This document shows, piece by piece, positions 28,424-59,092 of a stretch of DNA of 64,000 bases. The DNA comes from Minisyncoccota bacterium. GTDB lineage: Bacteria > Patescibacteriota > Minisyncoccia > Phycocordibacterales > JABAAK01. The notes beneath the pieces are model-generated. The model worked only from the letters and a program-made list of their open reading frames with translations, was not told the DNA's origin and ran no database searches. Positions within the stretch are counted from its first letter, which is position 1. Each line of letters starts with the position of its first letter. The stretch is from the NCBI GenBank assembly GCA_965222235.1, contig OZ244939.1, forward strand, positions 184,585 through 248,584, written 5' to 3'. A program made the translations under genes and the position numbers.

Positions 28424-28534
28424 AGTTTAGTAACCGTCACAGTGTACCATCATATCCGCAGCCTGGTACCTGCTGTTAATTAAAGCGGCATGTCGGCACG
28501 AAAAAAGACACCGCAAGGCGCCTTTTTTCATGTA

Positions 28535-41562: not shown

Positions 41563-41563
41563 G

Positions 41564-41636: not shown

Positions 41637-41690
41637 GTAGTACTGGTGTATAGTAGCATGCGGAATAATATACTACACTATATATATTCA

Positions 41691-41761
41691 GCGGGTATAG
41701 TTCAGTGGCAGAACGTAGCCTTCCCAAGGCTAAAACGAGGGTTCAATTCCCTCTACCCGCA
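41691..41761 (+). tRNA. tRNA-Gly (anticodon CCC)
   Basis: GCGGGTATAGTTCAGTGGCAGAAC...TAGCC-TTCCCAA-GGCTA...GAGGG-TTCAATT-CCCTC-TACCCGCA. A typical tRNA-Gly acceptor and D arm with a short variable loop. Confidence 0.8.
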
Positions 41762-41861
41762 CTTAAGTGTAAAAGAAGGATGGTACCCAGTTCCCCATTG
41801 ATGCCCCGAACTATAGACGGAGTGCTTATATTGCATTGTTATGCCTAATCATCAACAGGAC

Positions 41862-44144
41862 CTATTTTTGACCGGTTGAAATTATTTTATCCAGAATTTC
41901 AATCTCTCGCCGCATACTACTATCTCCAATACTATCAATTTCATCAGCAAGATACTCTCTCAACGTGGTCATGATTGAGCGGTATTCGTCTGATAATGCG
42001 AGACGATTGGATGTTCGTTCCCACCTGCCCAGTTCGGTAATAACCTCGATAACCGGTATACCTTCCTCACGGTAGCGAATGATCGGGATTTCTATTTGTG
42101 CTTCCGGAGCAAGCTCCGCTTCGTGCACAATCCAATCCTTCATTACATTCACATACCGTGACAAAACCACCCCTTTGTGAATGCCGGAGTTTGCGAAATA
42201 TTCCTCGTCGTCAGCACTGTCAAATTGAATATCTTGTTCATTTGTAAACTCTTCTCCCGAACGATTTTCATAGCTGACTCCGAGCTTCAGTTTTGCATCG
42301 TTGGTTAGCTTGCTGAGATGGAGGAGCACCAACCCACCTCTTGTTTCCTCGTTTATTCGTTCTGACGGGAAGAGGGTGCTCACTTTCATGAGTTCGCCGG
42401 TTGACAAATCTGCTTCGGGAGAGCCGTATACAGCATGAATGTCATACCCTTCTGATTCTAGGTTCAGTGTCAGGTCAAATACCAATGGAGTAACCATGTA
42501 GTCAAATCCGTCATCCATACGGTCTGTAAAGCCCTTTGCTGAGTGTACAGAGTAATAGTTTGCCCCTTTGGTCTTGGTGATTTCATTAATAAGTTCAGTA
42601 TTGAAATCAACACCTATACCAATAAAAGTGGTGTAAATGCCGTCATCAGCATTTTGCTTTGTAAGTCCAAATAAACCTTCCTCGCTGATTTGGCCCGTAT
42701 TAGGCATGGCATCAGTCAAAAAGATAATCCGGTTTTCATACTCGCTCCGATCCGAATCCTTAAATCTCTGGAAAAGTGCGGTGCCGGCCTGATACCCCGC
42801 TTCCATGTAGGTGCCGCCCGTCGGTATTATCTCAAGAATGTGGCTTTTGATTGCGTTCATATCAGTGCTTTCAACGCTGCGAAGACCCTTCGCGACATAG
42901 GCGCTACTCTCAAACAGAACCATTGCAAATCTATCTTTCAATTCAAGATGATCTAAAAGAGTTACAACCGATTCATTGGCGATTTTCATTTTTGACCGAT
43001 TATCAAACTCTTCCGCTGTACCAACGACATTCTCATGGTCTGTTCTGAATCGGTCATAGTAATAGCGATTAAACGATGAACCCATTGAACCAGATATATC
43101 AAGTACCACCACCAGGTTGAGCTTTTTTCGCCTAAAGTCATCCTGCCTGATGTCGGAGTTCAGACCGACCGATAAGAAGTGCTCCGTACTGCCGGAGAAC
43201 GGATCTCTTGAGACCGCGGTAGTGTATGAAGGACAAAATAAGTCAGTGCATGCCGCCTGAAGACCGGTATCAAATGTGTAGTCATAGAAGATACCTTCGT
43301 GAGTGATATCAGTTGGCACCGGAAGGTACCCATTGTTGATGTTTTCACGGAAGTTGTTTATATCGTTTGCTCCGCCCACCGCCAAACCGATTGTGTCAGA
43401 TTGGCTAAGCTTGACCGCCTGAAAAGAAAGACTGTCCAACGTAGCGTGCTGCACAAAACGAGATACGCCTTGCGCCATGAACTGAGTAACCATCCAAACA
43501 ACTAACAGCGGAACAAGCAATAAAATGTAGTAAAGGGAGAACAAAAACTTATTTCTGCCTGTTCGTCTGGTTATATCGTCCCCGCGATTACGAATCCAGT
43601 TGTATATGCCGCCGAAGAACAGGCATGCTATAAGCAGCAGAAAGGCAATGCCGATAGCACCGAATATCCAGAGCACAAGCGCTTCATTATTCTCAAAAAA
43701 AGCGAGCAAACTTCCGTGCAGGTTAAAAGCAAAAACCACCAAAACGACATAGAGCAGGACAACAAAACAAACAGCCGGCGCGCCCAACCAAAGGCGATGC
43801 TTTTTCCATACAGAGCTGCTATATTCACTTCGTGTCTTATCTGACCCACGCTTATGCTCTTTTGATATGAGTCCTTGGGAGAATTTGTATAACGGGAACC
43901 CAATGTAGGCAACAAAAAGAACTGCAAGTAAAACAACAATGATTTTGCCACCCAGTCCCGATTCTGCCCAAGATGTGGTTAAGCCCGATATGAGCGAAAA
44001 GCCTCCGTCATACATCCAATCGTCTACTTTACTGACACCAAAATCGTTGAATATATTTCTTATGACTGAAATAATTGATGGCAGCAATGGAATTGCTAAA
44101 AAAATACCCAGTGTTGTCCAAAAAGTTTGCTTTTTCATGATCAC
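41862..44144 (-). CDS. multi-TM membrane protein with an extracytoplasmic von Willebrand factor A (VWA) domain
   Basis: About six N-terminal TM helices. The VWA MIDAS motif DISGSMGSS is followed by the conserved downstream T and D. It is the first gene of the AT-richer island. Confidence 0.65.
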   Translation of the reverse strand: MIMKKQTFWTTLGIFLAIPLLPSIISVIRNIFNDFGVSKVDDWMYDGGFSLISGLTTSWAESGLGGKIIVVLLAVLFVAYIGFPLYKFSQGLISKEHKRGSDKTRSEYSSSVWKKHRLWLGAPAVCFVVLLYVVLVVFAFNLHGSLLAFFENNEALVLWIFGAIGIAFLLLIACLFFGGIYNWIRNRGDDITRRTGRNKFLFSLYYILLLVPLLVVWMVTQFMAQGVSRFVQHATLDSLSFQAVKLSQSDTIGLAVGGANDINNFRENINNGYLPVPTDITHEGIFYDYTFDTGLQAACTDLFCPSYTTAVSRDPFSGSTEHFLSVGLNSDIRQDDFRRKKLNLVVVLDISGSMGSSFNRYYYDRFRTDHENVVGTAEEFDNRSKMKIANESVVTLLDHLELKDRFAMVLFESSAYVAKGLRSVESTDMNAIKSHILEIIPTGGTYMEAGYQAGTALFQRFKDSDRSEYENRIIFLTDAMPNTGQISEEGLFGLTKQNADDGIYTTFIGIGVDFNTELINEITKTKGANYYSVHSAKGFTDRMDDGFDYMVTPLVFDLTLNLESEGYDIHAVYGSPEADLSTGELMKVSTLFPSERINEETRGGLVLLHLSKLTNDAKLKLGVSYENRSGEEFTNEQDIQFDSADDEEYFANSGIHKGVVLSRYVNVMKDWIVHEAELAPEAQIEIPIIRYREEGIPVIEVITELGRWERTSNRLALSDEYRSIMTTLREYLADEIDSIGDSSMRREIEILDKIISTGQK

Positions 44145-44346
44145 ATTGTGCCAAGAAAATCGGCATTTATACTACATTTTTATAATACCACCATCTTCCA
44201 ACTACGACTAAAAGAATCCACACAATGTAAAATAGCTGTATATGCTGCGGATTCCCGAGTCAAATTCCTACCGTATGAAAACGCTGCCGGCTGCCACAAC
44301 ACAAGTACGGAAACAAGACATACCGCCAACATGCTATACTGCCAGT

Positions 44347-44511
44347 ATGAAAAAAGATAATGAACATAAAGTACACGACGTACAAAAAAAGGTTCCTATC
44401 CTTAAAGCGCATGAGGTGCGCGACAAGTTCACTGATAAAGAATTTGAAGTGTTTGCTAAAGATATTCGGGATCGTTTCTTACCTGCGTTTAAAAAACTCG
44501 CTAAAGAATAG
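44347..44511 (+). CDS. candidate antitoxin (small charged protein immediately upstream of doc)
   Basis: ORF of 54 aa (MKKDNEHKVHD...) ending 3 bp before the doc start. Position and size fit a Phd-like partner. There is no sequence-family evidence. Confidence 0.4.
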   Translation: MKKDNEHKVHDVQKKVPILKAHEVRDKFTDKEFEVFAKDIRDRFLPAFKKLAKE

Positions 44512-44514
44512 TGT

Positions 44515-45006
44515 ATGGATTTTACCTATCCGCCGAAAGATGAGATGAGGGTGCGTATTGAAAAAATCAAAAATCTCTGCGAAAAAGAAAAAGATTCTTT
44601 CCTTGCAAGGATGTTCGCTTCACCCGACCCGCATGATAAGACAGTGGTGTTTGACTACATTGACGATGAATGGATAGACACGGTACACGGAAAGATTCAG
44701 TCGGTCGCTGAAAGCAGTATGTATAACGGTGACGGTACCGTTGAGCACCGAATCGCCTATATCTGCGTTGACATTAACACAGCGCATCGTTTCGGCAACG
44801 GTAACAAACGTTCAAGCCTGTTGACCTTACTTTTACTCCTCATCTACAACGATATGTGGGAGCGAATTCGCATGACAAATGATACAGACATCTACAACCT
44901 CGCCAAAAAGATCGCACGGGAGGGCTCAGCGGGGAGAGATAACAATATCATTGCTCTTCGTGAATGTCTCAAACACGGCAACTTTAAAAAATGTACCGAG
45001 ATTTAA
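44515..45006 (+). CDS. doc: Doc (death-on-curing)/Fic-fold toxin
   Basis: Doc-type Fic motif HRFGNGNKR (consensus HxFx(D/N)GNKR) in a protein of about 160 aa. Confidence 0.7.
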   Translation: MDFTYPPKDEMRVRIEKIKNLCEKEKDSFLARMFASPDPHDKTVVFDYIDDEWIDTVHGKIQSVAESSMYNGDGTVEHRIAYICVDINTAHRFGNGNKRSSLLTLLLLLIYNDMWERIRMTNDTDIYNLAKKIAREGSAGRDNNIIALRECLKHGNFKKCTEI

Positions 45007-45176
45007 TTCAATTTAAATAATCACATACCTAGCTCTACGGGTACAACGAGTCATGGACTTTGAGATTACCGAGATGTACGCGTGTCGTGTCTGTGACTAC
45101 TCTGTCTGCGTATGTAGTGTCTCATATCCCGCCGAACGCTGTGTCTGCCACGCCACAGAGCATCCTTGTTTTTTAC

Positions 45177-45644
45177 TCATCTTCCGGTGTAGGGGCGCAT
45201 TATACCGTTGTCTTCATTGATCCAGAATCTCTTGCCGGCATTCGGACCAGTGAAGTATATTCTACCGCACTCGCACTGCTCTCCCGTCTTATCCGGCTTG
45301 CAGATTCCGAATCTATCGTAGCGATAATTGTTTTCATCGTAAAGTACTGATGCAACCGACGGAATGATCGGACACACCAGCGGTTGTTTTGATGGGGCGG
45401 ATGTTTTCTCAGCTGAGATGTTTTTGAGCGCTTCCGTTACTTCCTGAAACCCCCGGTCAATTTGCTCCAGAATTTCTTCTATTGCTTTGTTGTCTTCATA
45501 CCGGGAAAATGTCTCAACAGGATTAATCGCACCGGTGCTACGCAATAGCGGGCTGTACGAGCCGGTTACAAAGCCGAGTATGAACAGCGCAAGCCCAACA
45601 ACCAACATACTGCAGATAATTTTGTGTTTTTGGCTCATATGCAC
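45177..45644 (-). CDS. hypothetical membrane-anchored protein
   Basis: N-terminal TM (IICSMLVVGLALFILGFV) and a C-terminal region with four Cys. No recognisable family. Confidence 0.35.
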   Translation of the reverse strand: MHMSQKHKIICSMLVVGLALFILGFVTGSYSPLLRSTGAINPVETFSRYEDNKAIEEILEQIDRGFQEVTEALKNISAEKTSAPSKQPLVCPIIPSVASVLYDENNYRYDRFGICKPDKTGEQCECGRIYFTGPNAGKRFWINEDNGIMRPYTGR

Positions 45645-45789
45645 CCATCATTATACTTTATATGTCATTAAGTTTCAGATTGAATTCGCACCTGAAGTGC
45701 AACAAAAAGAAAAAACACATACGCCCGCTTGGTACTATGGATATGTTACTAACCATAACCAAACAGGCGTATGTACACTCATAGTACCA

Positions 45790-46407
45790 TTACTAAGTGG
45801 TATACACCACCAGAGAATCTATGACCGGGTAAGAAGAGAGCGACCGGATCTCAAAGACAGGTTGCCGAGAAAAGGAAGGAAGAAAAGAAAGAAAACAGGA
45901 AAGAGGACAGTATGGGTCAGTACAACACGGTCAATACACAACAGACCGGAGACAGACGGGCTCTCCCGGGAGGGAGACACACTGGTGGGGCCGACAAAGA
46001 CAAGAATACTCACCCATGTGGAGAGGAAAAGCTTGTATCTTGATGCCAGAGTCATACGAGACGGTTTGTCCTACACCGTACATGAGACACTGCAAAAGAG
46101 ACCGCTGCAGGGACAAATCACCTATGACTGCGGTTCTGAATTCACCCTATGGAAATGGATAGAAGAGGATACGGGAGCGACTGTCTACTTTTGTGATCCT
46201 CATTCCCCGGGACAGCGGGGCAAGAATGAGAACACTACCGGCAGGCTCAGACGAGTCTACCCCAAGAACACTGATCTCAGCACGATAGCACAACAGAATC
46301 TCAACAATATTGTCCACCTCATGAACAACACCCCGAGGAAGTCCCTTAACTGGAAAACTCCCGCTCAGGTGTATACTGCACTTGTTGCATCTCAGTCGAG
46401 AGTCTAA
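45790..46407 (+). pseudogene. IS30-family transposase, 5'-truncated remnant (catalytic DDE domain only)
   Basis: The C-terminal 200 aa match the IS30 catalytic region (EGDTLVG ... YDCGSEF ... YFCDPHSPGQRGKNENTTGRLRRVYPKNTDL ... NNTPRKSLNWKTPAQVY). The N-terminal HTH domain is absent and no terminal inverted repeats were found. Confidence 0.65.
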
Positions 46408-46497: not shown

Positions 46498-46602
46498 ATG
46501 ATGCTTTTTCCCACAATGTTTGTGTTACAATGCAATACATATGAAGGAGGGAAAAGAGTACATCCCGAGGTCGCAGGAACCAAAACCTTTCATGGAAGGA
46601 GC
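46498..46602 (+). repeat. direct repeat, left copy of the pair bracketing the RHS locus
   Basis: The 97-bp stretch at 46506-46602 is identical to 57499-57595, verified base by base. It carries ...ttgtgttacaatgcaatacat ATG AAGGAGG..., so it includes a start codon and an SD-like purine tract. This copy is followed by only a 29-codon ORF. Confidence 0.85.
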
Positions 46603-47247: not shown

Positions 47248-47892
47248 TCAATCCCATGGTATTTTATTTTCGTTTTCATCTACCGGGTAGTAATCTAAGA
47301 TAACACCATTTCTAAGAAAAGGAGATAGGGGCAGGTGATGGAAGTAGTACCTTTGACCTTCTTTGGGTCTGTGAGGTTGAAGGAATAAGTAGGTGTTTAG
47401 ACTGTTTTTTGCGCGTGCACTCCCACCGATATTAAATTCCGGATCCGCGATATTTATATGAGTACTCCAACCGAATGCACCCTGATTATAACTTTCAACT
47501 GTGTATATCTTTTTAATAGAAACATCCCCATAGATTAAAGAGATCATAGTATATTTTATGGCGGGGAATAAATAAAATAATAGGAAGATTCCTACAAAAA
47601 ACCCCATAAAATGGAGTGTGACTGCCATCTTGTTTGGTTTTCTGCGGGGAGAGATAAAATTGTACAACCCCTTTTTATTTCTTTTGTACAAAAAATAGTC
47701 TGTTTTGTACATTTCAAATAGAAGTAAAAGGGACACTGCACTGTAGAAGGAAAAATAAAAAATCCAGCTTGCCAACCATTCCGGTAGAAAAAATTGTGAT
47801 ATGGAAATAGTCACAAAAAAAACAGTACCGGTATATTTATAAATAGGATTTCCCTTGAAAAATTTAATGATTTTCTTTAGAATGTTCTTCAT
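47248..47892 (-). CDS. candidate immunity protein for the orphan RHS C-terminal toxin (3-TM membrane protein, paralog of 49369-50013)
   Basis: Protein of 214 aa. Its start overlaps the orphan toxin stop by 4 bp. It is roughly 50-60% identical by eye to the protein following the full-length RHS gene. Three predicted TM helices and a roughly 100-aa C-terminal soluble part. Confidence 0.55.
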   Translation of the reverse strand: MKNILKKIIKFFKGNPIYKYTGTVFFVTISISQFFLPEWLASWIFYFSFYSAVSLLLLFEMYKTDYFLYKRNKKGLYNFISPRRKPNKMAVTLHFMGFFVGIFLLFYLFPAIKYTMISLIYGDVSIKKIYTVESYNQGAFGWSTHINIADPEFNIGGSARAKNSLNTYLFLQPHRPKEGQRYYFHHLPLSPFLRNGVILDYYPVDENENKIPWD

Positions 47893-49400
47893 CTTCCTGA
47901 CTGTAACTCTGCTATTTGTCTTTTTATTCGTGTTATCTCTCTTATTAAGTAAGAGATTTTTTCTCTTTTTGCTCGCGCAGCCTGATAGGTTTCTATGTGT
48001 CTCCCTACTCCGCTATAAAAGGATTTTGGAAACGATCTTGTTGTCTCAGCAACAAAGCCTTTCAATCCTGTTGTAGCACTTACACCAAATATAGAAACGT
48101 TTCCGTTGCTAAGTTTTGTGAGTGTTGATGAGTACACTGCAGAAAAACTGTTGGAACCACTTGTAATGCCAGATATTTTTATATATTTGCCAATACCAGA
48201 AAAAACAGCACTCTCAAAAAATCTTGAACTAAGTCTTGCAAAATTAAACTCCTGATTCGGGTCCTTATGCATCTCCCATCCTTGCTCAATTGAATCTCTG
48301 ACTACACCACCAGCAGTGCCTGCAATGATAGCAGCTAGTAAAGAAGTACCTACTACCAGCCCTCCGGTAGTAGCACCTCCGGCTGTAGCTGCAATATATT
48401 TATACCCTTCAGAAACCTCACCGGCAATAACATCAGTAATCACCTGAGAACCTGCCCCTACTAATACACCAACTGTGACACCAATCGCTATATGCGCCAA
48501 CTCCCCATCCCTATCCTCATAGCGCAGAGGATTATTCATAGCATACGCATAGGTATGGTGTGCCTGAGGATTGGTAAGGTAGTCAAGAAACGATACGCCT
48601 GTTGCTGCCTCAAACGCCACCGGACCTCCTATGTATTCTATTACCGGATCTTTGGAGATAAACAGTCCTTTATTCGGATCGTAGTATCGAGCATTTCTGT
48701 AGATAAAGTCTGTTTCATCCGTTATATTCCCCGTATGGGTATAGAGTGAATCTGTTGTGGCTGTTTCCGTATGTTTTTCTCCGTAGGGGTAGTAGTCTAT
48801 TGTTTGGGTTACCGTTCCTTCTTTATTTATTCCCGCAATGGTACTTCCCAGTGCATCAGTGTAGAGATGGGTGTGCTGTGTTTTCTTGCATCGGGTGTCT
48901 TCTGTATTCGGGGATACAGTGACTGCTGTTTCATTTCCTCTTTTTACTACGATATTACCGTTTTCCGTTACCTTTGTATACTCTGTCTCCGGTGTGAGAG
49001 TGAAGAGGAGACTGGTTTGTGTGAGGAGACAAAGATCACTTACCCCGCTTACATTCTTGATACTTCCTATCACTTCTCCTTCGGCGAAGATGTGTGTTTC
49101 AATAGTACCGTTTTCAAGGGTGTAGTACGGATTTACAAAAACTGTACTACCTGTCCCCTTTGTTTCTTTCACCCGATTACCTTCATGATCATAGAGATAG
49201 GTGTAGGTGTCAGCTCCTTCGGTGATTGTTTTTACTCTGCCTTTGTAGTCCCAGGTAAGGGTGTTGGTTCCGTCTGTCAGGAAGTTTCCGTTTGTGTCAT
49301 AGGTCTGTGCCGCTGTGCCTACTGTAGTGGGCATGTGGGGGGTGGTGAAGGTTGTCTCATCGATTGTTCTACTCATCATATATCCTATTTCTATTTTCAT
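47889..49400 (-). CDS. orphan RHS C-terminal module: the last YD repeats, the RHS core (...RYYDPNKGLFISKDP...) and a diverged C-terminal toxin domain
   Basis: Residues from DETTFTTPHMPTT to NNPLRYEDRDGELAHIAIG are near-identical to the C-terminal part of the 50010-57374 protein. The last 200 aa diverge (VTVGVLVGAG... versus AAIGAAIGAL...). It has its own ATG (MKIEIGYMMSR). Expression is uncertain. Confidence 0.7.
   Translation of the reverse strand: MKIEIGYMMSRTIDETTFTTPHMPTTVGTAAQTYDTNGNFLTDGTNTLTWDYKGRVKTITEGADTYTYLYDHEGNRVKETKGTGSTVFVNPYYTLENGTIETHIFAEGEVIGSIKNVSGVSDLCLLTQTSLLFTLTPETEYTKVTENGNIVVKRGNETAVTVSPNTEDTRCKKTQHTHLYTDALGSTIAGINKEGTVTQTIDYYPYGEKHTETATTDSLYTHTGNITDETDFIYRNARYYDPNKGLFISKDPVIEYIGGPVAFEAATGVSFLDYLTNPQAHHTYAYAMNNPLRYEDRDGELAHIAIGVTVGVLVGAGSQVITDVIAGEVSEGYKYIAATAGGATTGGLVVGTSLLAAIIAGTAGGVVRDSIEQGWEMHKDPNQEFNFARLSSRFFESAVFSGIGKYIKISGITSGSNSFSAVYSSTLTKLSNGNVSIFGVSATTGLKGFVAETTRSFPKSFYSGVGRHIETYQAARAKREKISYLIREITRIKRQIAELQSGR
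48479..49362. repeat. duplicated RHS core segment, orphan copy (about 884 bp, near-identical to 50615-51498)
   Basis: The ORF track shows identical antisense ORFs at 48492 and 50628. Only a handful of mismatches were seen. The boundaries were read from where the alignment breaks: above 49362/51498 and below 48479/50615. Confidence 0.85.
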
Positions 49401-50013
49401 CTACTGGGTAGTAATCTAGTATGACCCCTACTCTAAGAAAAGAAGAAAGGGGTAAGTAATGAAAATAATATTCTTGATCTGGTTTCGGTCTGAACGGGTG
49501 TAAAAATAAAAAGGTGTATAAACTGTTCCTTTCGCTTGCACTACCACCGATATTAAATTCGGGGTCTTTAATATAAATATGTGTTATCCAACCAAACCCA
49601 CCCTGACCAGACTTTTCAACCGTGTATACCTTTTTAATAGAAACATCTTCATGAGCTAAGGAAACAACAGTGTGTTTAATGACAGGAAGGACAGAGAATA
49701 AAACAAGAATAATCATAAGAGATTCTAAAATACGTAGTACGAGTAATGTTTTGGTTGGTTTCTTATTAAAATAAAGATAGGCATGTAATCTTTTTTTATT
49801 TTTTGTATATAGAAAGTAAATCGGTTTGCATAACTCAAACAAGCAAACAAAAAACATGGCAGTATAGAAATAGAAGTAGAAAATCCACGTTGATAGCCAT
49901 ATTGGTATGAAGTATTTCGGTACAAAGAGGACAATGAAAAGACCGATGCCGATATAGGTATAGATAGGGTGTTTCTTAAAAAATCTGATAATTTTTTTCA
50001 AAATGTTCTTCAT
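49369..50013 (-). CDS. candidate immunity protein for the full-length RHS toxin (3-TM membrane protein)
   Basis: Its start codon overlaps the RHS stop in an ATGA arrangement at 50010-50013. Protein of 214 aa, paralogous to 47248-47892. Confidence 0.55.
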   Translation of the reverse strand: MKNILKKIIRFFKKHPIYTYIGIGLFIVLFVPKYFIPIWLSTWIFYFYFYTAMFFVCLFELCKPIYFLYTKNKKRLHAYLYFNKKPTKTLLVLRILESLMIILVLFSVLPVIKHTVVSLAHEDVSIKKVYTVEKSGQGGFGWITHIYIKDPEFNIGGSASERNSLYTFLFLHPFRPKPDQEYYFHYLPLSSFLRVGVILDYYPVDENRNRIYDE

Positions 50014-53000
50014 CTTCTTGATTGTAGTGCTCTGATCCTTCTTTTTAATCTTGTTATTTCTTTTCGTAAGTAAGAGATTCTTTTCCTGATGCTTTGTGTC
50101 GTTATGTTGCTGTTATGTACACGTCTCTGAGTTCCTTCAAAAAAAGATTGAGGAAGTGATCGTGTTGTTTCAGCAACAAAGCCTTTTAATCCTGTTTTAG
50201 CACTCACATTAAGTATGGAAGCAGTGCCCCTACCAACTCGTGTGAGTGTTGATGAGTATGTTGAAGAAAAACTATGAGAACCTTTTGTGACATATGGAAT
50301 TTTTACAAATTTGCCGGCACCAGAAAGAAGAGAACTTCCTATTGTCCTAAAACCAAATCTCACAAAATTAAATTTCTGATCCTCGTTTTTATGCACCTCC
50401 CAACCTTGCTCAATTAAATCTCTCGTTGCCCCACCGGCACCTCCTGCAAGAAACAAACTGGCACCTCCTGTACCCGCTGCTATTGTCCCGGTAGTAGCAC
50501 CTCCAACCCCGGCAGCAACATAGCGGTAGGGATCAGAAACCTCTCCTGCGATGACATCAGCAACTACTTGAGAACCTATTCCTGCTAGTGCACCAATCGC
50601 AGCACCAATCGCAGCACCAATCGCTATATGCGCCAACTCCCCATCCCTATCCTCATAGCGCAGAGGATTATTCATAGCATACGCATAGGTATGGTGTGCC
50701 TGAGGATTGGTAAGGTAGTCAAGAAACGATACGCCTGTTGCTGCCTCAAACGCCACCGGACCTCCTATGTATTCTATTACCGGATCTTTGGAGATAAACA
50801 GTCCTTTATTCGGATCGTAGTATCGAGCATTTCTGTAGATAAAGTCTGTTTCATCCGTTATATTCCCCGTATGGGTATAGAGTGAATCTGTTGTGGCTGT
50901 TTCCGTATGTTTTTCTCCGTAGGGGTAGTAGTCTATTGTTTGGGTTACCGTTCCTTCTTTATTTATTCCCGCAATGGTACTTCCCAGTGCATCAGTGTAG
51001 AGATGGGTGTGCTGTGTTTTCTTGCATCGGGTGTCTTCTGTATTCGGGGATACAGTGACTGCTGTTTCATTTCCTCTTTTTACTACGATATTACCGTTTT
51101 CCGTTACCTTTGTATACTCTGTCTCCGGTGTGAGAGTGAAGAGGAGACTGGTTTGTGTGAGGAGACAAAGATCACTTACCCCGCTTACATTCTTGATACT
51201 TCCTATCACTTCTCCTTCGGCGAAGATGTGTGTTTCAATAGTACCGTTTTCAAGGGTGTAGTACGGATTTACAAAAACTGTATTATCTGTCCCCTTTGTT
51301 TCTTTCACCCGATTACCTTCATGATCATAGAGATAGGTGTAGGTGTCAGCTCCTTCGGTGATTGTTTTTACTCTGCCTTTGTAGTCCCAGGTAAGGGTGT
51401 TGGTTCCGTCTGTCAGGAAGTTTCCGTTTGTGTCATAGGTCTGTGCCGCTGTGCCTACTGTAGTGGGCATGTGGGGGGTAGTGAAGGTTGTCTCATCGGA
51501 GGTAAGATAAGTATAGTTGCCGACACCCGTTTTTGAGGTTATATTCCCTATCGCGTTGTATGTATAGCTTCTTGTGTAATTGTTTGATCCGTTATTGGTT
51601 ACTGTTGCACTAATGAGACGATTCATATTGTCATACGTGTATGCTTTGTTTACCGCTGTACCCGATGTGTTAGTATCAATCGTAGCAGTTATGTTACTGT
51701 CTCTGTCGTAGGTGTACTCAAGTTTTCTCGCAACAGCGATACTATTCCCCTTCACTTCCCTTATTGTCAGTCTTCCCGATGAATCGTATGTGTTTGTTTC
51801 TTTTGATCCGTTTGATCCGGTTTTTGTGTCAACCAGACCGAATACGTTGTAGGTAAGGGTTGTAAAGGGAGTATCGCTCACGGATACCGAAGAAACTCTG
51901 CCATTTTTTCCGTAGATGTTTTTAATAACAGTGCTGTTCGGAAGTGTTGTGGTGACTATGCCATTCTGTAAATTATGTGTATAGGTTGTTGTGTATGCGG
52001 TGCCGCTGATTGTTTTCACCTCTTCTTTCAGATTTCCTTCTTTATCGTATTTATAGGTCGCATTAACACTATCCGCTGAGGTAACAGAACAGATGCTTCC
52101 TTTTCCGTTCTCACAGGAATCGTATGTATACTGATAATCCGTTCCTGTAACAGATGCTCTGTCCTCCGTTAATGCCCTGCCGAGTGCATCATAGGTATAT
52201 GCTATAGCGGTTCCGTCCCGCTTTGTTTTTGATGTCAGGTACTCCTTGTTATACGCAAATTGCAGTGTCTTGTATGTCGTATCACTCGTGTGATGTAAAT
52301 CCTCAATGCTTGTGGTTCGTCCTATCATGTCATACTGTATACCACGGACATTATTCAACGCATCCTTCACTTTAATAATGCGATCCAATGGATCGTAGGT
52401 ATAGGTGGTGGTATGGGTGGAGGCACCGTCTATTTCATGCACCCTGTGCAGACGCCCGTAGCTGTCGTGTTCCAAACGTTTTTTCCTGTCCTCCGCCGAG
52501 GTAATTTCAACCGTATGCCCGTCATATGATGAAGTTGTTGTTCCGACCGGATTAACCACAGATACTATTCTGTTCAGCCCGTCATAGGTTGAGGAAGTGT
52601 TTGACGTGCCGGTTGGTGTTGTTGCATATGAACTTGTTGATGACTGGTACGGCATGTATTTTTTCTCAATCAGTCCCCGCTCGGTGTATGTTACATCCTC
52701 AGTATCAAACTTCGTGCCGTTAGATGTTTTTGTCTGTATTGTTCTGCCCAGACCGTCCATGTATGTCTGTCCGATTCTGGTTGCTGATCCGAAGTGCTCC
52801 CTCCTTTGCACTGAGTACGGACGATTTGTAAAGTTATACGAATAATCCGCCACTGTCTCTTTTGTACTTGCCCGTTTTTTCTTTATCGCCGTTATTCTGT
52901 CAATTCCGTCAAATTCGTAGTATATCTCAAAACCGTTCGGGTCTGTTATTTTTGTTACCTCTCCTGATGTTTCGTCGTATTCATACTGTGTGACATGTGA

Positions 53001-56000
53001 GAGTGGGTTGGTTTCCTGTGTCAGACGCAGTGAGTTGGTGTCATACGTATAGGTTGTTGTGTTGTTCAGGGAATCATTTTCCGTCAGCACCCGCCCTCTC
53101 GTGTTGTATGTGTAGGTTCTTTTTTGCTTTGTCGTGCCGTCTATCTTTCTCTTTTTTGTGAGCATATTCCCATTTGAGTCGTAGGTATACTCATTTTCAA
53201 CAATAATCACATCCGATGCATTTTTTATCGTTTCCTCGGACAGCAATGAAACTATATAATTGGTCGTGTCCGGCGTTTTGTAGGTGTACACTACCTTGCG
53301 CAATACGGCGGTTCCGCTCTTTTTTGTCTCAGTGAGCACATTACCGTATGTGTCGTAAGTGTATTCCGTGCTGTTTGAGTAGTCATCACCGAATGTTACA
53401 TTGCCGCTGCCGTATACCGTCTTTTTCTCTTTTGTCAGGTACATGTATGTGCTGTTTGTGCCGTTGCTGGTTTCCCCGTATGTGTATTCAATCTTTTCAA
53501 GAAGAATGTTCGACTCGCCTTCATTTACTGCCGCTTGGTATATTTCTTTCTTGTACGGAAGTCCTATTTTTGCATACGAGTCAGTCGGTTCCGCATTGGT
53601 GCTATTCTGCCCATTTCCCTGGTGGTAGTATATTTTTTCTTTTCTGTTTCCCCGTGTTCTCTCCACTGTTTCAAAACCGGCGAACTTTTTGTCAGACGGA
53701 CCGTTAAAGTAGTAATACCCGCCTGTGTACCCGAGAGTTTCCGTGTTGTCCGTGGCATATGTATCCGTATATGCAATTGAGGAGACGATGCGGAGGGGAA
53801 ACGGCACCCTGTTGGTTGTATCATGCACTCCGGCACCGGTGTACGATATATCAAAACTGCCGCCGTATTTGGTAGTGATTGTGTCTAATTCAAACGTGTT
53901 GTCAGCAATGAAGTATTTGTAGTCATATCCAAAATTTCTTCTCCCCACTCTTTGCTTTTTATAGTACACATCATTTATTCCGTCGCCGTTTACATCTATC
54001 ATGGCATTTACATATATATTTCCGTTTGAGTTTGATCCGGCATGTTCTAATATACCTGCATTCCTGAGAGCGTCGGTATATTTCTTACTGTATTGATACC
54101 CATCAATACCCTTACTCAAATAGACTCGGTATCCGTAGTTATGTGTTTTGGTTATATCTTTGATATTTCGATCAATATCTCTATCGTTATAAATATCGGT
54201 GACAATGAGGTCATACATACCATCCGTGTTTATATCCTTCCATGATCCGGCATATCTGTCAGTACTGAAGTTATTGTTTCCGTCGGCAAAATAAATTGTG
54301 GGGTAATTCAAGTAATCAATGTCCGCCGACCAGCCGAACCCATTATTGATTTTAGATCTACTTATATCAGCAAGACCGTCACCGTTGTAGTCAATAAGGA
54401 AGTTCGGAACTCGTAACCCGTAATAGGGACCGTGATAGGGATCCCCCCTGTTGTAGTACAGAATATACGGTACTGATATGGTGCTTGACTGTACCGGATT
54501 AAATCCGTCGGCGTTTAGAAACACAAGTGTTGTAGTGTAATCCCTCCATCCGCCACCACGAGTATGCCTATCATACCTCTTTGGAAATACATCCAACGTC
54601 CCATCTCCGTTTATATCACCCAGACCGTCAGCCCATGAGGAATGAAAGTCCCTGTTAATAGAGGTTCTGCTGAAGGTGTTGAGTGAGCCATTATTCTTGT
54701 ATATATAACTGTTAGTACTGCACCTCTTACATCTTCTTGTTATGACCTGAAGAAAATCAGGGTAATAATCGCCGTTCATATCAAACTTACCCTGAACGCT
54801 ATCAAATGTCGGAAACATATCGATTGCGGAGTTAAAACCGTTACCATTGTTCACCTGAGTATCATTTGTCGCCCCCAAGGAAACAACATCAGGCATACCA
54901 TCCCTTGTCGCATCTGCAAGACCTGACGGACCGGTAGATCCATAACTGCTGTTTTCCGTGTATGAAATAGTGTCAGTGTATCCAAACGTTGTTTTCGGTT
55001 CGGTTGTCCAATTGCCGTCTGCATCCTTGCCGTATTTGTACAACGCTTTGATAACATACGTGTATTTCAATTCATTGACAAGTTCAAGATCCTGTTTGTA
55101 TGAAAATAGTTTTTCCGTACCTTTGTAAAAGTCAATGCCGTTTATTATGTACTTCGTTTTTACCGGAAATCCTGTATTGAAAAGTTTTGTCTTATCATTT
55201 CTCCCCTGTTTGGTGAATTGGAGCGAATACACATATGATCCTCCGGAAGTATTTACATACTCTATCTTCTTCGGGTATATCTGCCCGTGGTCTTTGGTGT
55301 ATGTGTACTCTATCGTGTTGCCATTTGTATCTTCTATCTTTTCAAGCATCCATTTGAACGTTTCTGTTTCCCACTGTACCGTGCCGTCCTGACGCGCCTG
55401 CAGAGTTTCACCGAAGTAATACTTCGTACCGACGGTATCAGTTACTACCCAATAATCACCAATTTTCTCGTATTTTCTGAATGCTCCTTTTTCTGTCCTC
55501 GGCTTATACATCTCCGACTGTGTGGTACTCTTTGTTGTTGTTTCACTTATTTTGTATGTGTATACCTCACCCCCATCGTACCACCGGTTTCGGCGACTGT
55601 CAAACCTGGTAACTCCCGCAGCGATATATCCTCCGTCAAGAGATATTGATCGCGCAGAAAAATCACCTGTGATGTCGGGGGGAATTACTTTTCTCTCAAA
55701 TCCCCAGGTGCCGTCACTTTTCTCTTTATACACATAAAACATATACTTTCTATGTTCTGTATCCCTTGCGCCCACTGTTAAGGTGTCTCCGTCGAGCAAA
55801 ACACCCCATGAACCGAAAACAATGTTCGAGTGGCTGTCTGACGCTTTCAGTTTCACCGGATTACCCCATGTTCCGTCTGATTCTCTCGTGTATACATACA
55901 CCGCACCAGAGGATTCAATACCGGTACTCTCCCCACTCATACCGATTGCCAAGGTGTTTCCGTTGATTGCAACAGATGTGCCGAATGGGGTTTTTCCTAT

Positions 56001-57374
56001 TATGACTTGATTTTCATATTTTGTAGTATTGCCGGGCTTGCTTGCATTACCCCACCCTCCGTTCACATCCTCTTCGTATATAAATACTGCCGGACCGTTG
56101 CCTGTAGTAACTACAAGACGATTTCCTGCTAATGAAATACGATCTCCGAACTCTCCTGAAGTGTTGCGATTCCCATATCTGGCGCTCGGATACAGTGACT
56201 CTTTTTTTATCCACGAACCCGCATCATTCCGTTTATATACCTCAATATACCACCATGACTGTCTATCCCTCGCCTTCACCGCCAGTATGTCATCATCAAG
56301 GTATACGGTATCAGCAGACCGAACCTGAATTTCCGTTCTGTTTCCCCACACATCATTCGTCCCCCTTTTATACACAAATACCTTGTTACTTGAAACCGTG
56401 ACAGCCAAATAATCTCCTGATAGGGAAATATTTTCTCCGAAACTGGAATATGTGGCATCCGACAATCGTTGTAAAAAAGCCCACGAGCCGCTACTCTGCC
56501 TCTTGTATATATACACCACACCGTCTGCTCCATTTCTTTCGTTGTCGTCTAAGTCGTATGTAGGGGCACTCATAGCAAGGTAGTCCCCGTTTAGTGAAAC
56601 CCTTTGTCCGAACCGGCTGCTTGCTTTCCAATCGGTCGGCACAATTTTCTGTTTACTACCGATGGCATACTCCTTTACGGGATATGATGTAGACGATATA
56701 CTTGCCGTATTTTGTTTTACTATTTCACCGTCCAGTGATGAAATATAATCATCGTTTGTATATATTTTATTTGAACCCTTTTTTGTTGATCGCTCTATAT
56801 ATGGTATATCCACTTCCCAACCGTACCCGAATATGCCGTTATTCTTTTTGTTGGAACTCTTGAAAACAAGATTGTGCTGAGGAGTAAACCCGTTTCTCCC
56901 TTCGGGGACGGTAAGAGAGTATGAATAGGTGAGTGATCCGTCTAAATTGTCTATCAATGGGTGAATAACATTCCCTGATGATTTTATTGTTCCCGTTGTC
57001 CCGGATGAAGAGCCCGATGCCCCTGATGCCCCATCTTCAGTATCCTGATTATCAACATAATCGTCAGGCAACTCAAAGGACGGGTGAATGGGGCCCCCGC
57101 TATCAACAGAACCCTGAGCGGGAGGTTCCGGCAAATCACCGATTCCGTCATCCTCATCCGGCGATACGGTACCGCTCGGTCCGTCCTCTATCTGCCCTGA
57201 CGGTCCCGAAGTTTCACCCTGTGCATAAGAAACCAACGGGTTAAGGACAAGGAGCAGTGAAAGTGTAAAAGAAAGGAGTACCGATGATATTGAATGATAT
57301 CTCTTATTGCGAAACGGTACAATAGTATCAAGTGAACTATACGAACTGGTTACCATATTAAAGAAACGGTACAT
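50010..57374 (-). CDS. giant RHS/YD-repeat polymorphic toxin, a fused TcB/TcC-like cocoon protein: signal peptide, SpvB-like N-terminal domain, FG-GAP/VCBS beta-propeller repeats, YD repeats, RHS core and a variable C-terminal toxin domain
   Basis: Start set at MYRFFNMVTSS, 57374. The ORF-track extension to 57731 runs through the divergent promoter region and is judged artefactual. Signal peptide ISSVLLSFTLSLLLVLNPLVSYAQG. SpvB-like block GSLTYSYSLTVPEGRNGFTPQHNLVFKSS...GYGWEVDIPYIERST. DxNGDGxxD repeats (DINGDGTLDV, DYNGDGLADI, DVNGDGINDV). Dozens of YD repeats (YTYDTNGN, YEYDETSG, YTYDALGR...). RHS core RYYDPNKGLFISKDP ... NNPLRYEDRDGE, followed by a 208-aa C-terminal domain rich in glycine-zipper motifs. 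Confidence 0.85.
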   Translation of the reverse strand: MYRFFNMVTSSYSSLDTIVPFRNKRYHSISSVLLSFTLSLLLVLNPLVSYAQGETSGPSGQIEDGPSGTVSPDEDDGIGDLPEPPAQGSVDSGGPIHPSFELPDDYVDNQDTEDGASGASGSSSGTTGTIKSSGNVIHPLIDNLDGSLTYSYSLTVPEGRNGFTPQHNLVFKSSNKKNNGIFGYGWEVDIPYIERSTKKGSNKIYTNDDYISSLDGEIVKQNTASISSTSYPVKEYAIGSKQKIVPTDWKASSRFGQRVSLNGDYLAMSAPTYDLDDNERNGADGVVYIYKRQSSGSWAFLQRLSDATYSSFGENISLSGDYLAVTVSSNKVFVYKRGTNDVWGNRTEIQVRSADTVYLDDDILAVKARDRQSWWYIEVYKRNDAGSWIKKESLYPSARYGNRNTSGEFGDRISLAGNRLVVTTGNGPAVFIYEEDVNGGWGNASKPGNTTKYENQVIIGKTPFGTSVAINGNTLAIGMSGESTGIESSGAVYVYTRESDGTWGNPVKLKASDSHSNIVFGSWGVLLDGDTLTVGARDTEHRKYMFYVYKEKSDGTWGFERKVIPPDITGDFSARSISLDGGYIAAGVTRFDSRRNRWYDGGEVYTYKISETTTKSTTQSEMYKPRTEKGAFRKYEKIGDYWVVTDTVGTKYYFGETLQARQDGTVQWETETFKWMLEKIEDTNGNTIEYTYTKDHGQIYPKKIEYVNTSGGSYVYSLQFTKQGRNDKTKLFNTGFPVKTKYIINGIDFYKGTEKLFSYKQDLELVNELKYTYVIKALYKYGKDADGNWTTEPKTTFGYTDTISYTENSSYGSTGPSGLADATRDGMPDVVSLGATNDTQVNNGNGFNSAIDMFPTFDSVQGKFDMNGDYYPDFLQVITRRCKRCSTNSYIYKNNGSLNTFSRTSINRDFHSSWADGLGDINGDGTLDVFPKRYDRHTRGGGWRDYTTTLVFLNADGFNPVQSSTISVPYILYYNRGDPYHGPYYGLRVPNFLIDYNGDGLADISRSKINNGFGWSADIDYLNYPTIYFADGNNNFSTDRYAGSWKDINTDGMYDLIVTDIYNDRDIDRNIKDITKTHNYGYRVYLSKGIDGYQYSKKYTDALRNAGILEHAGSNSNGNIYVNAMIDVNGDGINDVYYKKQRVGRRNFGYDYKYFIADNTFELDTITTKYGGSFDISYTGAGVHDTTNRVPFPLRIVSSIAYTDTYATDNTETLGYTGGYYYFNGPSDKKFAGFETVERTRGNRKEKIYYHQGNGQNSTNAEPTDSYAKIGLPYKKEIYQAAVNEGESNILLEKIEYTYGETSNGTNSTYMYLTKEKKTVYGSGNVTFGDDYSNSTEYTYDTYGNVLTETKKSGTAVLRKVVYTYKTPDTTNYIVSLLSEETIKNASDVIIVENEYTYDSNGNMLTKKRKIDGTTKQKRTYTYNTRGRVLTENDSLNNTTTYTYDTNSLRLTQETNPLSHVTQYEYDETSGEVTKITDPNGFEIYYEFDGIDRITAIKKKRASTKETVADYSYNFTNRPYSVQRREHFGSATRIGQTYMDGLGRTIQTKTSNGTKFDTEDVTYTERGLIEKKYMPYQSSTSSYATTPTGTSNTSSTYDGLNRIVSVVNPVGTTTSSYDGHTVEITSAEDRKKRLEHDSYGRLHRVHEIDGASTHTTTYTYDPLDRIIKVKDALNNVRGIQYDMIGRTTSIEDLHHTSDTTYKTLQFAYNKEYLTSKTKRDGTAIAYTYDALGRALTEDRASVTGTDYQYTYDSCENGKGSICSVTSADSVNATYKYDKEGNLKEEVKTISGTAYTTTYTHNLQNGIVTTTLPNSTVIKNIYGKNGRVSSVSVSDTPFTTLTYNVFGLVDTKTGSNGSKETNTYDSSGRLTIREVKGNSIAVARKLEYTYDRDSNITATIDTNTSGTAVNKAYTYDNMNRLISATVTNNGSNNYTRSYTYNAIGNITSKTGVGNYTYLTSDETTFTTPHMPTTVGTAAQTYDTNGNFLTDGTNTLTWDYKGRVKTITEGADTYTYLYDHEGNRVKETKGTDNTVFVNPYYTLENGTIETHIFAEGEVIGSIKNVSGVSDLCLLTQTSLLFTLTPETEYTKVTENGNIVVKRGNETAVTVSPNTEDTRCKKTQHTHLYTDALGSTIAGINKEGTVTQTIDYYPYGEKHTETATTDSLYTHTGNITDETDFIYRNARYYDPNKGLFISKDPVIEYIGGPVAFEAATGVSFLDYLTNPQAHHTYAYAMNNPLRYEDRDGELAHIAIGAAIGAAIGALAGIGSQVVADVIAGEVSDPYRYVAAGVGGATTGTIAAGTGGASLFLAGGAGGATRDLIEQGWEVHKNEDQKFNFVRFGFRTIGSSLLSGAGKFVKIPYVTKGSHSFSSTYSSTLTRVGRGTASILNVSAKTGLKGFVAETTRSLPQSFFEGTQRRVHNSNITTQSIRKRISYLRKEITRLKRRIRALQSRR
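50615..51498. repeat. duplicated RHS core segment, copy inside the full-length gene (about 884 bp)
   Basis: See 48479-49362. The offset between the copies is 2136 bp. Confidence 0.85.
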
Positions 57375-57488
57375 ACATGCAAACACTAATATTACTATGA
57401 TACCTTTTAAATTAACCCGCGACTCACTTTCCCACTTTGGAGGCGCCGACCCGGCGCGGTTGCGCCGCATATGATGCGGAGAAAAGAC

Positions 57489-57595
57489 ATGATGTTCCTT
57501 TTCCCACAATGTTTGTGTTACAATGCAATACATATGAAGGAGGGAAAAGAGTACATCCCGAGGTCGCAGGAACCAAAACCTTTCATGGAAGGAGC
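57489..57595 (+). repeat. direct repeat, right copy, including the promoter/RBS/start of the 57533 gene
   Basis: The 97-bp stretch at 57499-57595 is identical to 46506-46602. It lies in the divergent intergenic region between the RHS gene on the minus strand and the 57533 gene on the plus strand. Confidence 0.85.
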
Positions 57596-58094
57596 GGCGT
57601 ATAGGCCTGGGGAAATCATACATTTTGACCAGGCAACCAAAGAGGAGGTTGTGGAGATTTTGAACAATCAAGATTTGTCTCAAAACGAGCGGGAGAAACG
57701 TGTTTTCACATATCTTAAAAATCATCCGCAAGATCAGCTAGTTATTGAGGGACAGATAGATGAAGTAACCTACGACGGCATTGAGAACCTGCCCCTTCCG
57801 GAGAAATATGTACTATTCTCGCATCTAATGCGAAAGTGGGATGAAAATAAATCCGTAAAAATGGAGTTAAGGAAAACCGTTGAAACCATATTTAAACGGG
57901 AGGATATCAGTGAGACAGAACAGGATGCCCTCATATCCAAGTATGTGCAAGAACAAGGTTTATCGGCAACAGATACCGATCTTCTTATACAGAAAATTGT
58001 AACCCGAGGAACCGGCAGTTTGAGCAGAAAAGAAAATGTCGCTCTTTACACAGCCCTTGAAGAGAATTGGAAACAACAGCATCACCCGCACTAA
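57533..58094 (+). CDS. hypothetical soluble protein, AT-rich, divergently transcribed from the RHS gene
   Basis: Start chosen at ATG AAG GAG GGA (MKEGKEYIPRSQ...). No recognisable family. AT-rich composition like the rest of the island. Confidence 0.4.
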
Positions 58095-58126: not shown

Positions 58127-59092
58127 TTGAACAAAACTTTCGCGCGCATGGCGTATTTCGCGAATCAAACGAAAAACATTTATGACGGGCTGGCGTGCAT
58201 TTTTTGTGTGGTACCATACCGTACAGTTATGGATGTTCGTACCAAATTCATTCTCAGCATGTTCATCCTTGCCGGTGCGGTCGGCGCAGTCAGCGTATTT
58301 GTATACATCTCCGCAACCTCGGACCCATTCGCTGACGGCGGACAGGAAATACCCCTCCGTCCGACATCCATAGAGGACGGCGGCACGGGAGGAGTAGATC
58401 CCCTGTTCCCCATAGGAGGCGGAGAGAATAACGAGACTCCGGAAAGAAAACCGGTCGGCACCATATCTCTGGAGACTCCCGAAACGCCCGAATACGAAGC
58501 GGAAAAAGATCCCGGCAGCAGATCAAACAGGGCGCGGTATCGGGTCCGCATGCATGCCCCCTGGAGCCAGCTGCAGCACGGTACTTTCTACCCGGCAGGC
58601 GCGCACCTCTCACCGATGGTTGCCTGGGCGCACCGGCTGAAAAATACGGTGTTCGCCACCGGGACGCTTGCAAGCGACGGCATGGAAATCATGGCGGAAA
58701 CGGGAGCAACCAAAACGCTCGCCGGGGAACTGCAGGAACTCGGAAAAGAGGGACGACTCCACAACTACAACATCGGGAAGCGTATTGACGCGCCCGGCGA
58801 AGACAGCGTGATTATCGTTCTCTCCAACACCGCCCCGTTTGCGAGCGTCGTGAGCATGATAGCCCCGAGTCCGGACTGGTTCATCGCAGCACATAATGTA
58901 CGACTGTTTGAAAATAATCAATGGGTGAAAAAGAGTTCGGTTCCCGCCGTTCTGTATGACTCCGGCACCGACAGCGGAACGACCTTCACCGCGAAAGACG
59001 CGGACACCGCACCGCCCGAACCCATCCACCGGTTTGCGAAAGCGCCCGTCGTACCGATTGCCACATTTGATTTCATACGCATTGAGGATTAG
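58127..59092 (+). CDS. secreted/membrane-anchored protein with a spondin_N-like domain
   Basis: TM/signal segment (FILSMFILAGAVGAVSVFVYI). Motifs reminiscent of the F-spondin N-terminal domain (YRVRMHAPWS...FYPAGAHLSPMVAWAH...SPDWFIAAHNVRLFENNQW). The assignment is tentative. Confidence 0.45.
   Translation: MNKTFARMAYFANQTKNIYDGLACIFCVVPYRTVMDVRTKFILSMFILAGAVGAVSVFVYISATSDPFADGGQEIPLRPTSIEDGGTGGVDPLFPIGGGENNETPERKPVGTISLETPETPEYEAEKDPGSRSNRARYRVRMHAPWSQLQHGTFYPAGAHLSPMVAWAHRLKNTVFATGTLASDGMEIMAETGATKTLAGELQELGKEGRLHNYNIGKRIDAPGEDSVIIVLSNTAPFASVVSMIAPSPDWFIAAHNVRLFENNQWVKKSSVPAVLYDSGTDSGTTFTAKDADTAPPEPIHRFAKAPVVPIATFDFIRIED

Follow-up and report, generated by a model that had tools for sequence, protein, structure and literature searches.

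An uncharacterized family of RHS C-terminal toxin domains with putative membrane immunity proteins, found as two cassettes in a Minisyncoccota genome

INTRODUCTION

Pore-forming toxins that are encapsulated by RHS proteins and paired with membrane immunity proteins are established, as exemplified by Tse5/Tsi5 (PMC9637101, PMC10684867). Autoproteolytic release of the toxic domain at the C terminus (CT) is known for Tse5, RhsA, and Rhs1, and Tse5 is cleaved between L1168 and I1169 (PMC10684867). Among channel-forming effectors, membrane immunity proteins are the rule (PMC12744356). How RHS-released toxins enter or cross the inner membrane of the target cell has been named a key question (10.1101/2025.10.28.685041), and the DNase Tde1 of Agrobacterium depends on a glycine zipper for its translocation (PMC10240207). 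The present analysis concerns an RHS polymorphic toxin locus with two toxin/immunity cassettes in a genome of a Minisyncoccota bacterium (assembly GCA_965222235.1). The stretch of DNA analyzed, referred to here as the window, comprises 64,000 nucleotides (contig OZ244939.1, positions 184,585 to 248,584 of the forward strand); all coordinates below are positions within it.

A first-pass annotation of the window, made from the sequence alone, had suggested a possibly new pore-forming toxin/immunity family at this locus. The family is indeed uncharacterized. The kind of system is known, since RHS pore-formers of the Tse5/Tsi5 type with membrane immunity are established, and the pore itself is something that we infer. 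The CT cassettes are read here, with a probability of about 0.5, as encoding a membrane-depolarizing RHS toxin, on the basis of the composition of the domain, its predicted fold, and its neighbors.

RESULTS

Two toxin/immunity cassettes in one RHS locus

Analysis of the locus revealed a full-length RHS polymorphic toxin gene on the minus strand (50010-57356) that encodes a protein of 2448 amino acids. The last 207 residues of this protein, which follow the end of the core, form the toxin domain CT1 (50013-50633, minus strand). The next gene (49369-50013, minus strand) encodes Imm1, a putative immunity protein of 214 amino acids for which the open reading frame (ORF), the hydropathy profile, and a structural model indicate three transmembrane (TM) helices followed by a beta domain at the C terminus. 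Downstream of Imm1, an orphan RHS C-terminal fragment (47889-49400, minus strand) was recognized by its ORF and by its DNA identity to the main gene. It contains a second toxin domain, CT2 (47892-48497, minus strand), with the same three modules as CT1, and is followed by Imm2 (47248-47892, minus strand), a 214-amino-acid putative immunity protein for CT2. CT1 and CT2 are 55% identical (E value of 5e-71), and Imm1 and Imm2 are 57% identical (E value of 3e-88). Both toxin/immunity junctions have a 4-nucleotide ATGA overlap, in which the start codon of Imm1 sits within the stop of the CT1 toxin. The ORFs bore out the coordinates and the gene content given in the first-pass annotation.

The core DNA of the two copies is 99 to 100% identical over about 880 nucleotides (51498-50620 in the main gene versus 49362-48485 in the orphan). 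The identity falls to about 70% at the boundary between core and CT and stays at this level until the immunity genes end. A nearly identical core followed by diverged CT and immunity DNA is what is classically seen when an rhs toxin/immunity cassette has been displaced and recombination keeps it available. Two hallmarks of RHS polymorphic toxins, a cognate downstream gene and an orphan CT/immunity cassette, are found at this locus, with protection itself being putative. These results support the view that CT1/Imm1 and CT2/Imm2 are the toxin/immunity modules belonging to a polymorphic toxin locus of the RHS type.

The mechanical ORF of the RHS gene spans 50010-57731, and 57356 was chosen by eye as the probable start from the position of a probable Sec signal peptide (57222-57356, minus strand). 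This signal peptide, also read by eye, is long and ends in NPLVSYA (MVTSSYSSLDTIVPFRNKRYHSISSVLLSFTLSLLLVLNPLVSYA before QGE). The N terminus of a 2380-amino-acid homolog (P0018) is equivalent, with CNPVVGYA preceding QESG. Pfam analysis of the RHS protein revealed SpvB, FG-GAP_2/3, and RHS_repeat domains. RHS/YD repeats were detected with PF05593 in eight stretches (E value of 4.8e-23) and with TIGR01643 (E value of 8.8e-18). The Rhs-associated core (TIGR03696; 50640-50930, minus strand; ORF residues 2268 to 2364; E value of 1.3e-11) has NPLRYEDRDGEL as its C-terminal end, a PxxxxDxxG-type motif directly before the variable CT. Because the core ends at ORF residue 2364, CT1 begins immediately after NPLRYEDRDGEL, at 50633. 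By analogy with the cleaved RHS proteins, NPLRYEDRDGEL would be the autoproteolytic boundary ahead of CT1.

Modular, all-helical organization of the CT domain

The AlphaFold model of CT1, generated with a 50-sequence alignment, is all-helical (pLDDT score, from the predicted local distance difference test, of 86.4), with helices at CT residues 2-29, 35-55, 60-82, 90-109, 122-134, 145-158, and 160-206. The domain was divided into three parts of approximately 105, 65, and 45 amino acids. Module A (CT residues 1 to 109; 50307-50633, minus strand) consists of four Gly/Ala-rich, nearly uncharged helices and was delimited from the AlphaFold model, from hydropathy and charge, and from a metagenomic relative (L022) that is described below. 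Module B (CT residues 110 to 170; 50124-50306, minus strand) is Ser/Thr/Lys-rich and helical, as judged from conservation and from the AlphaFold helices 122-134 and 145-158; its conserved residues are G118, S121, T131, K/R132, and K150. The C-terminal part (CT residues 171 to 207; 50013-50123, minus strand) is a basic heptad coiled coil, identified by the helix 160-206 (pLDDT of 94 to 98) and its heptad register. In the first 70 residues, Gly, Ala, Ser, and Thr together account for 63% of CT1 and 53% of CT2.

The terminal helix had been described as basic and amphipathic. The basic helix is present, but it reads as a coiled coil because its a/d heptad is clean (I,I,L,I,L,I,L); an interpretation as a membrane-surface amphipathic helix was rejected, as the heptad suits a coiled coil better. 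This element was seen in only 10 of 150 family representatives.

Comparison with Pfam and NCBIfam gave no match for CT1 or CT2, and neither domain matched the Pfam glycine-zipper families (Gly-zipper_Omp, Gly-zipper_YMGG, and Rick_17kDa_Anti) above the gathering threshold. No match of the CT to the colicin pore-forming domain was found by sequence or by fold. A Foldseek search with the CT1 model returned nothing at E values of <1; fold searches revealed no enzyme and just a partial likeness to integral membrane helix bundles. When the family profile was compared with all PDB sequences, the sole match was NDUFA11, which was weak (E value of 1e-3). In the family alignment there is no conserved His/Cys/acidic catalytic-type set of the nuclease, deaminase, or ADP-ribosyltransferase kind, the only conserved Asp being D26 in helix 1. 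Pfam, NCBIfam, Foldseek, and the conserved residues agree with the earlier statement that the domains match no recognized enzymatic toxin motif. Neither a soluble enzyme fold for the CT nor a housekeeping membrane protein family for the 214-amino-acid proteins emerged.

The CT domain belongs to a large cross-phylum family

When 1.84 billion representatives were searched exhaustively with a profile, 178 clusters (at 50% identity) had E values of <1e-3, and 12 of these had E values of <1e-10. The CT is therefore not confined to this locus but belongs to a large family spread across bacterial phyla, including Pseudomonadota and Bacilli. The matches span profile positions 10 to 170, well past the Gly-rich part, and CT1 and CT2 themselves match the profile over positions 3 to 167 (E values of 6e-47 and 2e-48, respectively). 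Among the 150 best representatives, 123 carry an RHS core-end motif (P....D..G/D.xG) directly upstream of the CT and 18 are N-terminally truncated fragments. A few members have other carriers, such as a protein with a He_PIG immunoglobulin domain and short proteins that have an additional TM helix. Fifty members scanned singly have no Pfam or NCBIfam family of their own; Gly-zipper_YMGG matched two of them, with E values down to 1.7e-4. One member gave hits to glycine-zipper families that were below the threshold.

The conserved columns of the family are G14, Q22, D26, S33, Y38, G44, G45, G118, S121, T131, K132, and K150. The glycines G14, G44, and G45 are 94 to 100% conserved family-wide. CT1 deviates from conserved family columns by R119S and N120H. 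In 126 members, helices 1, 2, and 3a contain 1 to 8% charged residues and 36 to 55% Gly plus Ala, and the later helices are amphipathic. A search with a profile of module B yielded just N-terminally truncated fragments.

Members P0155 to P0167, P0009, and P0014 differ in their C-terminal endings after module B. Some of these endings consist of a Gly/Ala stretch followed by a Cys motif (SCGCH, DCGCN, GCGGCP, or SCECK), and others carry a conserved GGFVLYPSKPNxNMMxRVYSK peptide; in the subfamily of the window, the coiled coil occupies this place. The BTH_I2691/colicin-like effectors (TseMt and Tke5) were considered as relatives and found to be a different family.

Putative immunity proteins Imm1 and Imm2

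The first-pass annotation had assigned three TM helices and a soluble C-terminal domain to both 214-amino-acid proteins. The predicted model of Imm1, with three long helices followed by a five-strand beta domain, agrees with this description. Hydropathy analysis revealed clear hydrophobic segments 2 and 3 (about residues 40 to 62 and 86 to 121) in both proteins; the first segment (about residues 17 to 37) exceeds the hydropathy threshold of 1.5 in Imm1 only and not in Imm2. Six Lys/Arg residues are located at the N terminus of Imm1 and nine in the loop at residues 63 to 87.

Neither Pfam nor NCBIfam gave a match for Imm1 or Imm2, and no Pfam family, including DUF5085 (the TipE/ExiAB-type partner), matched Imm1, Imm2, or nine other downstream partners. 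Comparison of Imm1 with the 3-TM immunity protein of a related locus (L017) aligned a shared YLP motif without significance (hhalign E value of 0.18), and the Imm profile matched none of the downstream partners of the other loci. Among 5.8 billion proteins, the Imm1/Imm2 family has four members, two of which are outside this genome. Both of these are orphan immunity genes that lack a toxin in their vicinity. In front of one of them (L002) are the final toxin codons (ILQSRR and stop), with the ATGA junction kept. Orphan immunity genes with such a toxin remnant would fit the behavior that immunity genes to secreted toxins typically show, and comparable orphan behavior is known for the ExiCD immunity proteins (PMC12744356). 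On L002 (1-815), copies of the Imm homolog are apparently arranged in tandem, each behind a toxin 3' remnant (ILQSRR and stop); this layout could be an assembly effect, because both ends of the 815-nucleotide contig are nearly identical.

Downstream genes in related loci encode membrane proteins

With a degenerate DNA motif that represents the conserved module, 17 loci were identified in metagenome-assembled genomes (MAGs), and one further locus came from a look-up of the encoding contig. The hosts of the motif loci include Pseudomonadota, Verrucomicrobiota, Acidobacteriota, Bacilli, and others. In 16 of the 17 evaluable loci, the gene directly after the CT encodes a protein with one to four TM helices, as judged by hydropathy. 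This result supports the proposed link between the CT and membrane immunity proteins. The offset between CT and partner gene in the evaluable loci ranges from -16 to +129, with frequent overlaps. Most partners have 69 to 194 amino acids and one has 287; many consist of two TM helices plus about 100 amino acids. The partners in L006, L008, and L009 (69 to 75 amino acids) have little beyond two TM helices and no soluble domain. The partners form several groups with no detectable similarity to one another or to Imm1. L004 and L011 have nearly identical toxin/immunity sequences, although one belongs to a MAG classified as Pseudomonadales and the other to a MAG classified as Oscillospiraceae, both from the study SRP263991; this near-identity suggests a binning error or a very recent transfer.

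Module A occurs with other tails

Metagenome contigs were scanned with one group of family members whose tails do not match module B, which led to the locus L022 (contig Ga0315905_10092479, 119-1581). It encodes an RHS C-terminal fragment. Its Gly-rich module matches positions 2 to 108 of the family profile (103 bits), and the match ends there. The tail that follows matches the C-terminal domain of Serratia marcescens Rhs2 (PDB 8cm0; E value of 9.5e-17), an HNH-type DNase whose structure has been solved (10.1101/2025.10.28.685041). The Pfam matches are weak, with HNH in the tail (E value of 0.04) and SMI1_KNR4 in the next gene (E value of 0.013). The tail is regarded as an HNH DNase because of the PDB match to the Serratia Rhs2 domain, Pfam alone having given no confirmation. 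The next gene overlaps the toxin gene by ATGA; its product, in which no membrane helices were seen by eye, is the protein with the weak SUKH/SMI1_KNR4 match. The architecture of L022 shows module A as a portable unit able to precede an enzyme that acts in the cytoplasm; one example of a fusion of module A to an enzyme was found. The type of immunity tracks the C-terminal half of the toxin (module B versus DNase) and not module A.

Other tails attached to module A gave no Pfam match (P0068/P0116/P0126, P0087, and P0104), and those of P0116, P0087, and P0104 gave no PDB sequence match. The tail of P0104 had been taken by eye for a PD-(D/E)xK domain; neither Pfam nor PDB matches supported this assignment.

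Genomic surroundings of the RHS island

The window also carries rpoB, rpoC, dnaG, and murJ, as well as a class A bacterial RNase P RNA (28529-28860; 142.8 bits). The whole RHS island (about 10.9 kb) is flanked by an exact 97-nucleotide direct repeat, with copies at 46506-46602 (left) and 57499-57595 (right). The right copy overlaps the 5' end of a plus-strand gene that starts at 57534, and the left copy duplicates the start of this gene in truncated form. The repeat pair resembles a scar left by an insertion or a duplication, and the vicinity of the repeats showed no integrase.

Beside the island, tRNA-Thr and tRNA-Gly are located at 41563-41762. An ORF at 45487-46407 (plus strand) resembles, by eye, the tail of an IS30-type transposase (HSPGQRGKNENTTGRLRR...TPRKSLNWKTPAQVY), and an ORF at 44515-45006 (plus strand), preceded by a small ORF at 44242-44511, contains a Fic/Doc-like HRFGNGNKR motif. 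The ORFs at 45487-46407 and 44515-45006 had no Pfam match at E values of ≤1e-5. The tRNAs and the ORFs at 44242-46407 suggest that this region is variable and rich in mobile elements. Predicted surface or secreted proteins around the island include an FG-GAP plus PG_binding_1 protein (36468-38981), a VWA-domain membrane protein (41862-44144), and a Spondin_N protein (58127-59092).

DISCUSSION

If the CT cassettes encode a membrane-depolarizing toxin, the following course of events can be proposed. As in RHS proteins of known structure, the RHS shell would enclose the CT of about 207 amino acids. By analogy with Tse5, RhsA, and Rhs1, the Rhs core would free this domain by cutting between DRDGEL and AH. 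At the target cell, module A would enter the cytoplasmic membrane, and modules A and B, oligomerized by the coiled coil, would build an ion-conducting lesion that depolarizes the cell. The coiled coil, which is confined to this subfamily, could drive the oligomerization. In the producer and its kin, the 3-TM immunity protein would keep its own toxin from inserting or assembling, and recombination in the core tract, which is 99 to 100% identical, might put the orphan cassette in the place of the active one. The formation of a pore by the CT is presumed in this scheme.

Several observations weigh against a membrane-depolarizing toxin. The strongest conservation in the family is found in the polar module B. 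The earlier claim that the domains are dominated by small-xxx-small repeats stood with respect to the Gly-, Ala-, Ser-, and Thr-rich composition and the conserved glycines, but the spacing is not significantly more frequent than in the shuffled domains (p = 0.08 for CT1 and 0.39 for CT2) and is not above what the composition gives. Seven of the 150 representatives keep approximately the first 105 to 125 profile positions and have tails unlike module B. In L022, module A is separable, and the locus is without a membrane immunity gene. Because L022 fuses module A to a DNase with soluble immunity, module A alone is probably not a lethal pore-former, and it may be a translocation device. The equation of a glycine zipper with a pore-forming toxin is too simple, because the Gly-rich part is separable and precedes an HNH DNase elsewhere; module A is read as a portable membrane-insertion module that is not necessarily the toxin itself. 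With regard to immunity, the model of Imm1 is weak (pLDDT of 66), and for this reason the likeness of its predicted beta domain to an OB-fold is only a lead. The distribution of Lys and Arg residues would place this C-terminal domain outside the cell, a topology that derives from the positive-inside rule only.

These observations bring up another division of labor, which is possible but unlikely in our judgment. Module A would only deliver, and module B, alone or together with the coiled coil, would be the real toxin with a non-pore activity, acting at the inner membrane face or in the cytoplasm and being captured by the soluble domain of the immunity protein. Such a division is favored by L022, where module A is joined to an HNH DNase and the immunity gene is of the soluble type, and by the other tails that module A has elsewhere, by the fact that the immunity type goes with the C-terminal module and not with module A, and by the high conservation of module B. 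Precedents are the glycine zipper of Tde1 (PMC10240207) and the separate entry domains of contact-dependent growth inhibition (CDI) toxins (PMC11630599). Module B, however, has only about 65 amino acids and is helical, with no conserved catalytic-type residues and no enzyme fold found in the searches described above. The partners are also polytopic membrane proteins, and those of 69 to 75 amino acids (L006, L008, and L009) can only act inside the membrane because they have no soluble domain. The combination of module A with an enzyme was seen in a single example. It is a tentative proposal, which we consider doubtful, that module A is a widespread domain located directly behind the Rhs cleavage site and capable of autonomous membrane translocation, and that module B is a new toxin. 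If it were true, module A would carry RHS cargos into or across the cytoplasmic membrane without a prePAAR TM domain as used in type VI secretion (T6SS) or a hijacked receptor. Its cargos would comprise the HNH DNase of L022, module B in the window, and several other tails, and module B would be countered from within the membrane.

Lower still is the probability that the CT is a membrane-anchored toxin that attacks an envelope lipid target (lipid II, undecaprenyl carriers, or phospholipids) without forming a pore. The immunity protein would then work at the outer membrane face, like the colicin M immunity protein, a role to which its predicted external beta domain would be suited, and the toxin does bear membrane helices of its own. 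This idea conflicts with the results for the CT, in which neither a motif nor a fold typical of a hydrolase, lipase, or phosphatase was found, nor a conserved acidic/His set, and many immunity proteins of the family are without an external domain. Hydrophobic helices at the C terminus of a secreted protein could also serve to anchor a surface RHS protein in the membrane or to assemble it, with the 214-amino-acid protein as its partner or chaperone. Such a nontoxic function is very improbable in view of the sharp identity break at the boundary between core and CT, the displaced orphan cassette, the core motif immediately upstream of the CT in 123 of 150 relatives, the hypervariable partner genes, the orphan immunity genes elsewhere, and the relative in which module A is joined to a DNase.

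Membrane-acting RHS toxins are known from one well-studied case, Tse5. The family described here comprises at least 178 clusters with no Pfam or NCBIfam model, and no experimental study of it was found. The presence of two diverged toxin/immunity pairs in one locus makes it suited to a comparison of cross-immunity. The Gly-rich half, which is portable and able to precede a DNase, bears on the question of how RHS-released toxins enter or cross the inner membrane.

Tse5 (RhsP1)/Tsi5 of Pseudomonas aeruginosa is the closest system in function and layout. Both systems have an RHS shell around a hydrophobic or amphipathic C-terminal fragment (150 to 200 amino acids) with no enzymatic motif, which the Rhs aspartyl protease frees in Tse5 and, by analogy, would free here, and both encode a small membrane protein immediately downstream. 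A comparison of the 50-sequence profile with all PDB chains at E values of ≤10 gave no Tse5 chain; entries 8cp6 and 9i9y were in the set, the presence of the full CT in them being unconfirmed. Unlike Tse5, a PAAR-type T6SS effector, the protein of the window has a Sec signal and a TcB-like SpvB/FG-GAP N terminus, and its CT is modular with a terminal coiled coil. Imm1 has three TM helices and a beta domain, unlike Tsi5 with its two TM helices. WapA of Bacillus subtilis is likewise an RHS/YD protein exported by Sec. Its CT is variable, an immunity gene follows downstream, and it serves in contact-dependent competition without a T6SS. The CTs of WapA are tRNases with soluble immunity proteins and not membrane toxins, which sets them apart from the domains in the window.

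The LXG toxins TelE, EsxX, and TspA, which belong to type VII secretion (T7SS) (PMC12744356), resemble the present family, as judged from their description, in their Gly-rich helices and in a depolarizing CT, an activity that is conjectural here. Their polytopic membrane immunity proteins (ExiCD and TsaI) and the orphan immunity genes in nonproducers are further common features. In contrast, the carrier in the window is an RHS and not an LXG/T7SS protein, the Gly-rich helices are located at the N terminus of the CT and not, like the zipper of these toxins, near the C terminus, and no DUF5085-type cytoplasmic immunity protein, as in TelE/EsxX, was found here.

The CDI ionophores (CdiA-CT EC93/CdiI; PMC11630599), also compared by description, have a two-domain CT composed of a variable entry part and a helical membrane-spanning bundle, very hydrophobic and hypervariable membrane immunity proteins, and a wide distribution without a database designation, all of which recall the family described here. 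They differ in the use of CdiA/CdiB, in their occurrence in Proteobacteria, and in the reversed order of domains, the entry domain preceding the ionophore. With Tde1 the family shares a Gly-rich membrane-active segment joined to a separate toxic domain, an arrangement paralleled by module A and the HNH DNase in L022. In Tde1, the segment is short and N-terminal and precedes an Ntox15 DNase with soluble immunity, whereas module A of the window precedes module B, and the immunity protein encoded there is a membrane protein.

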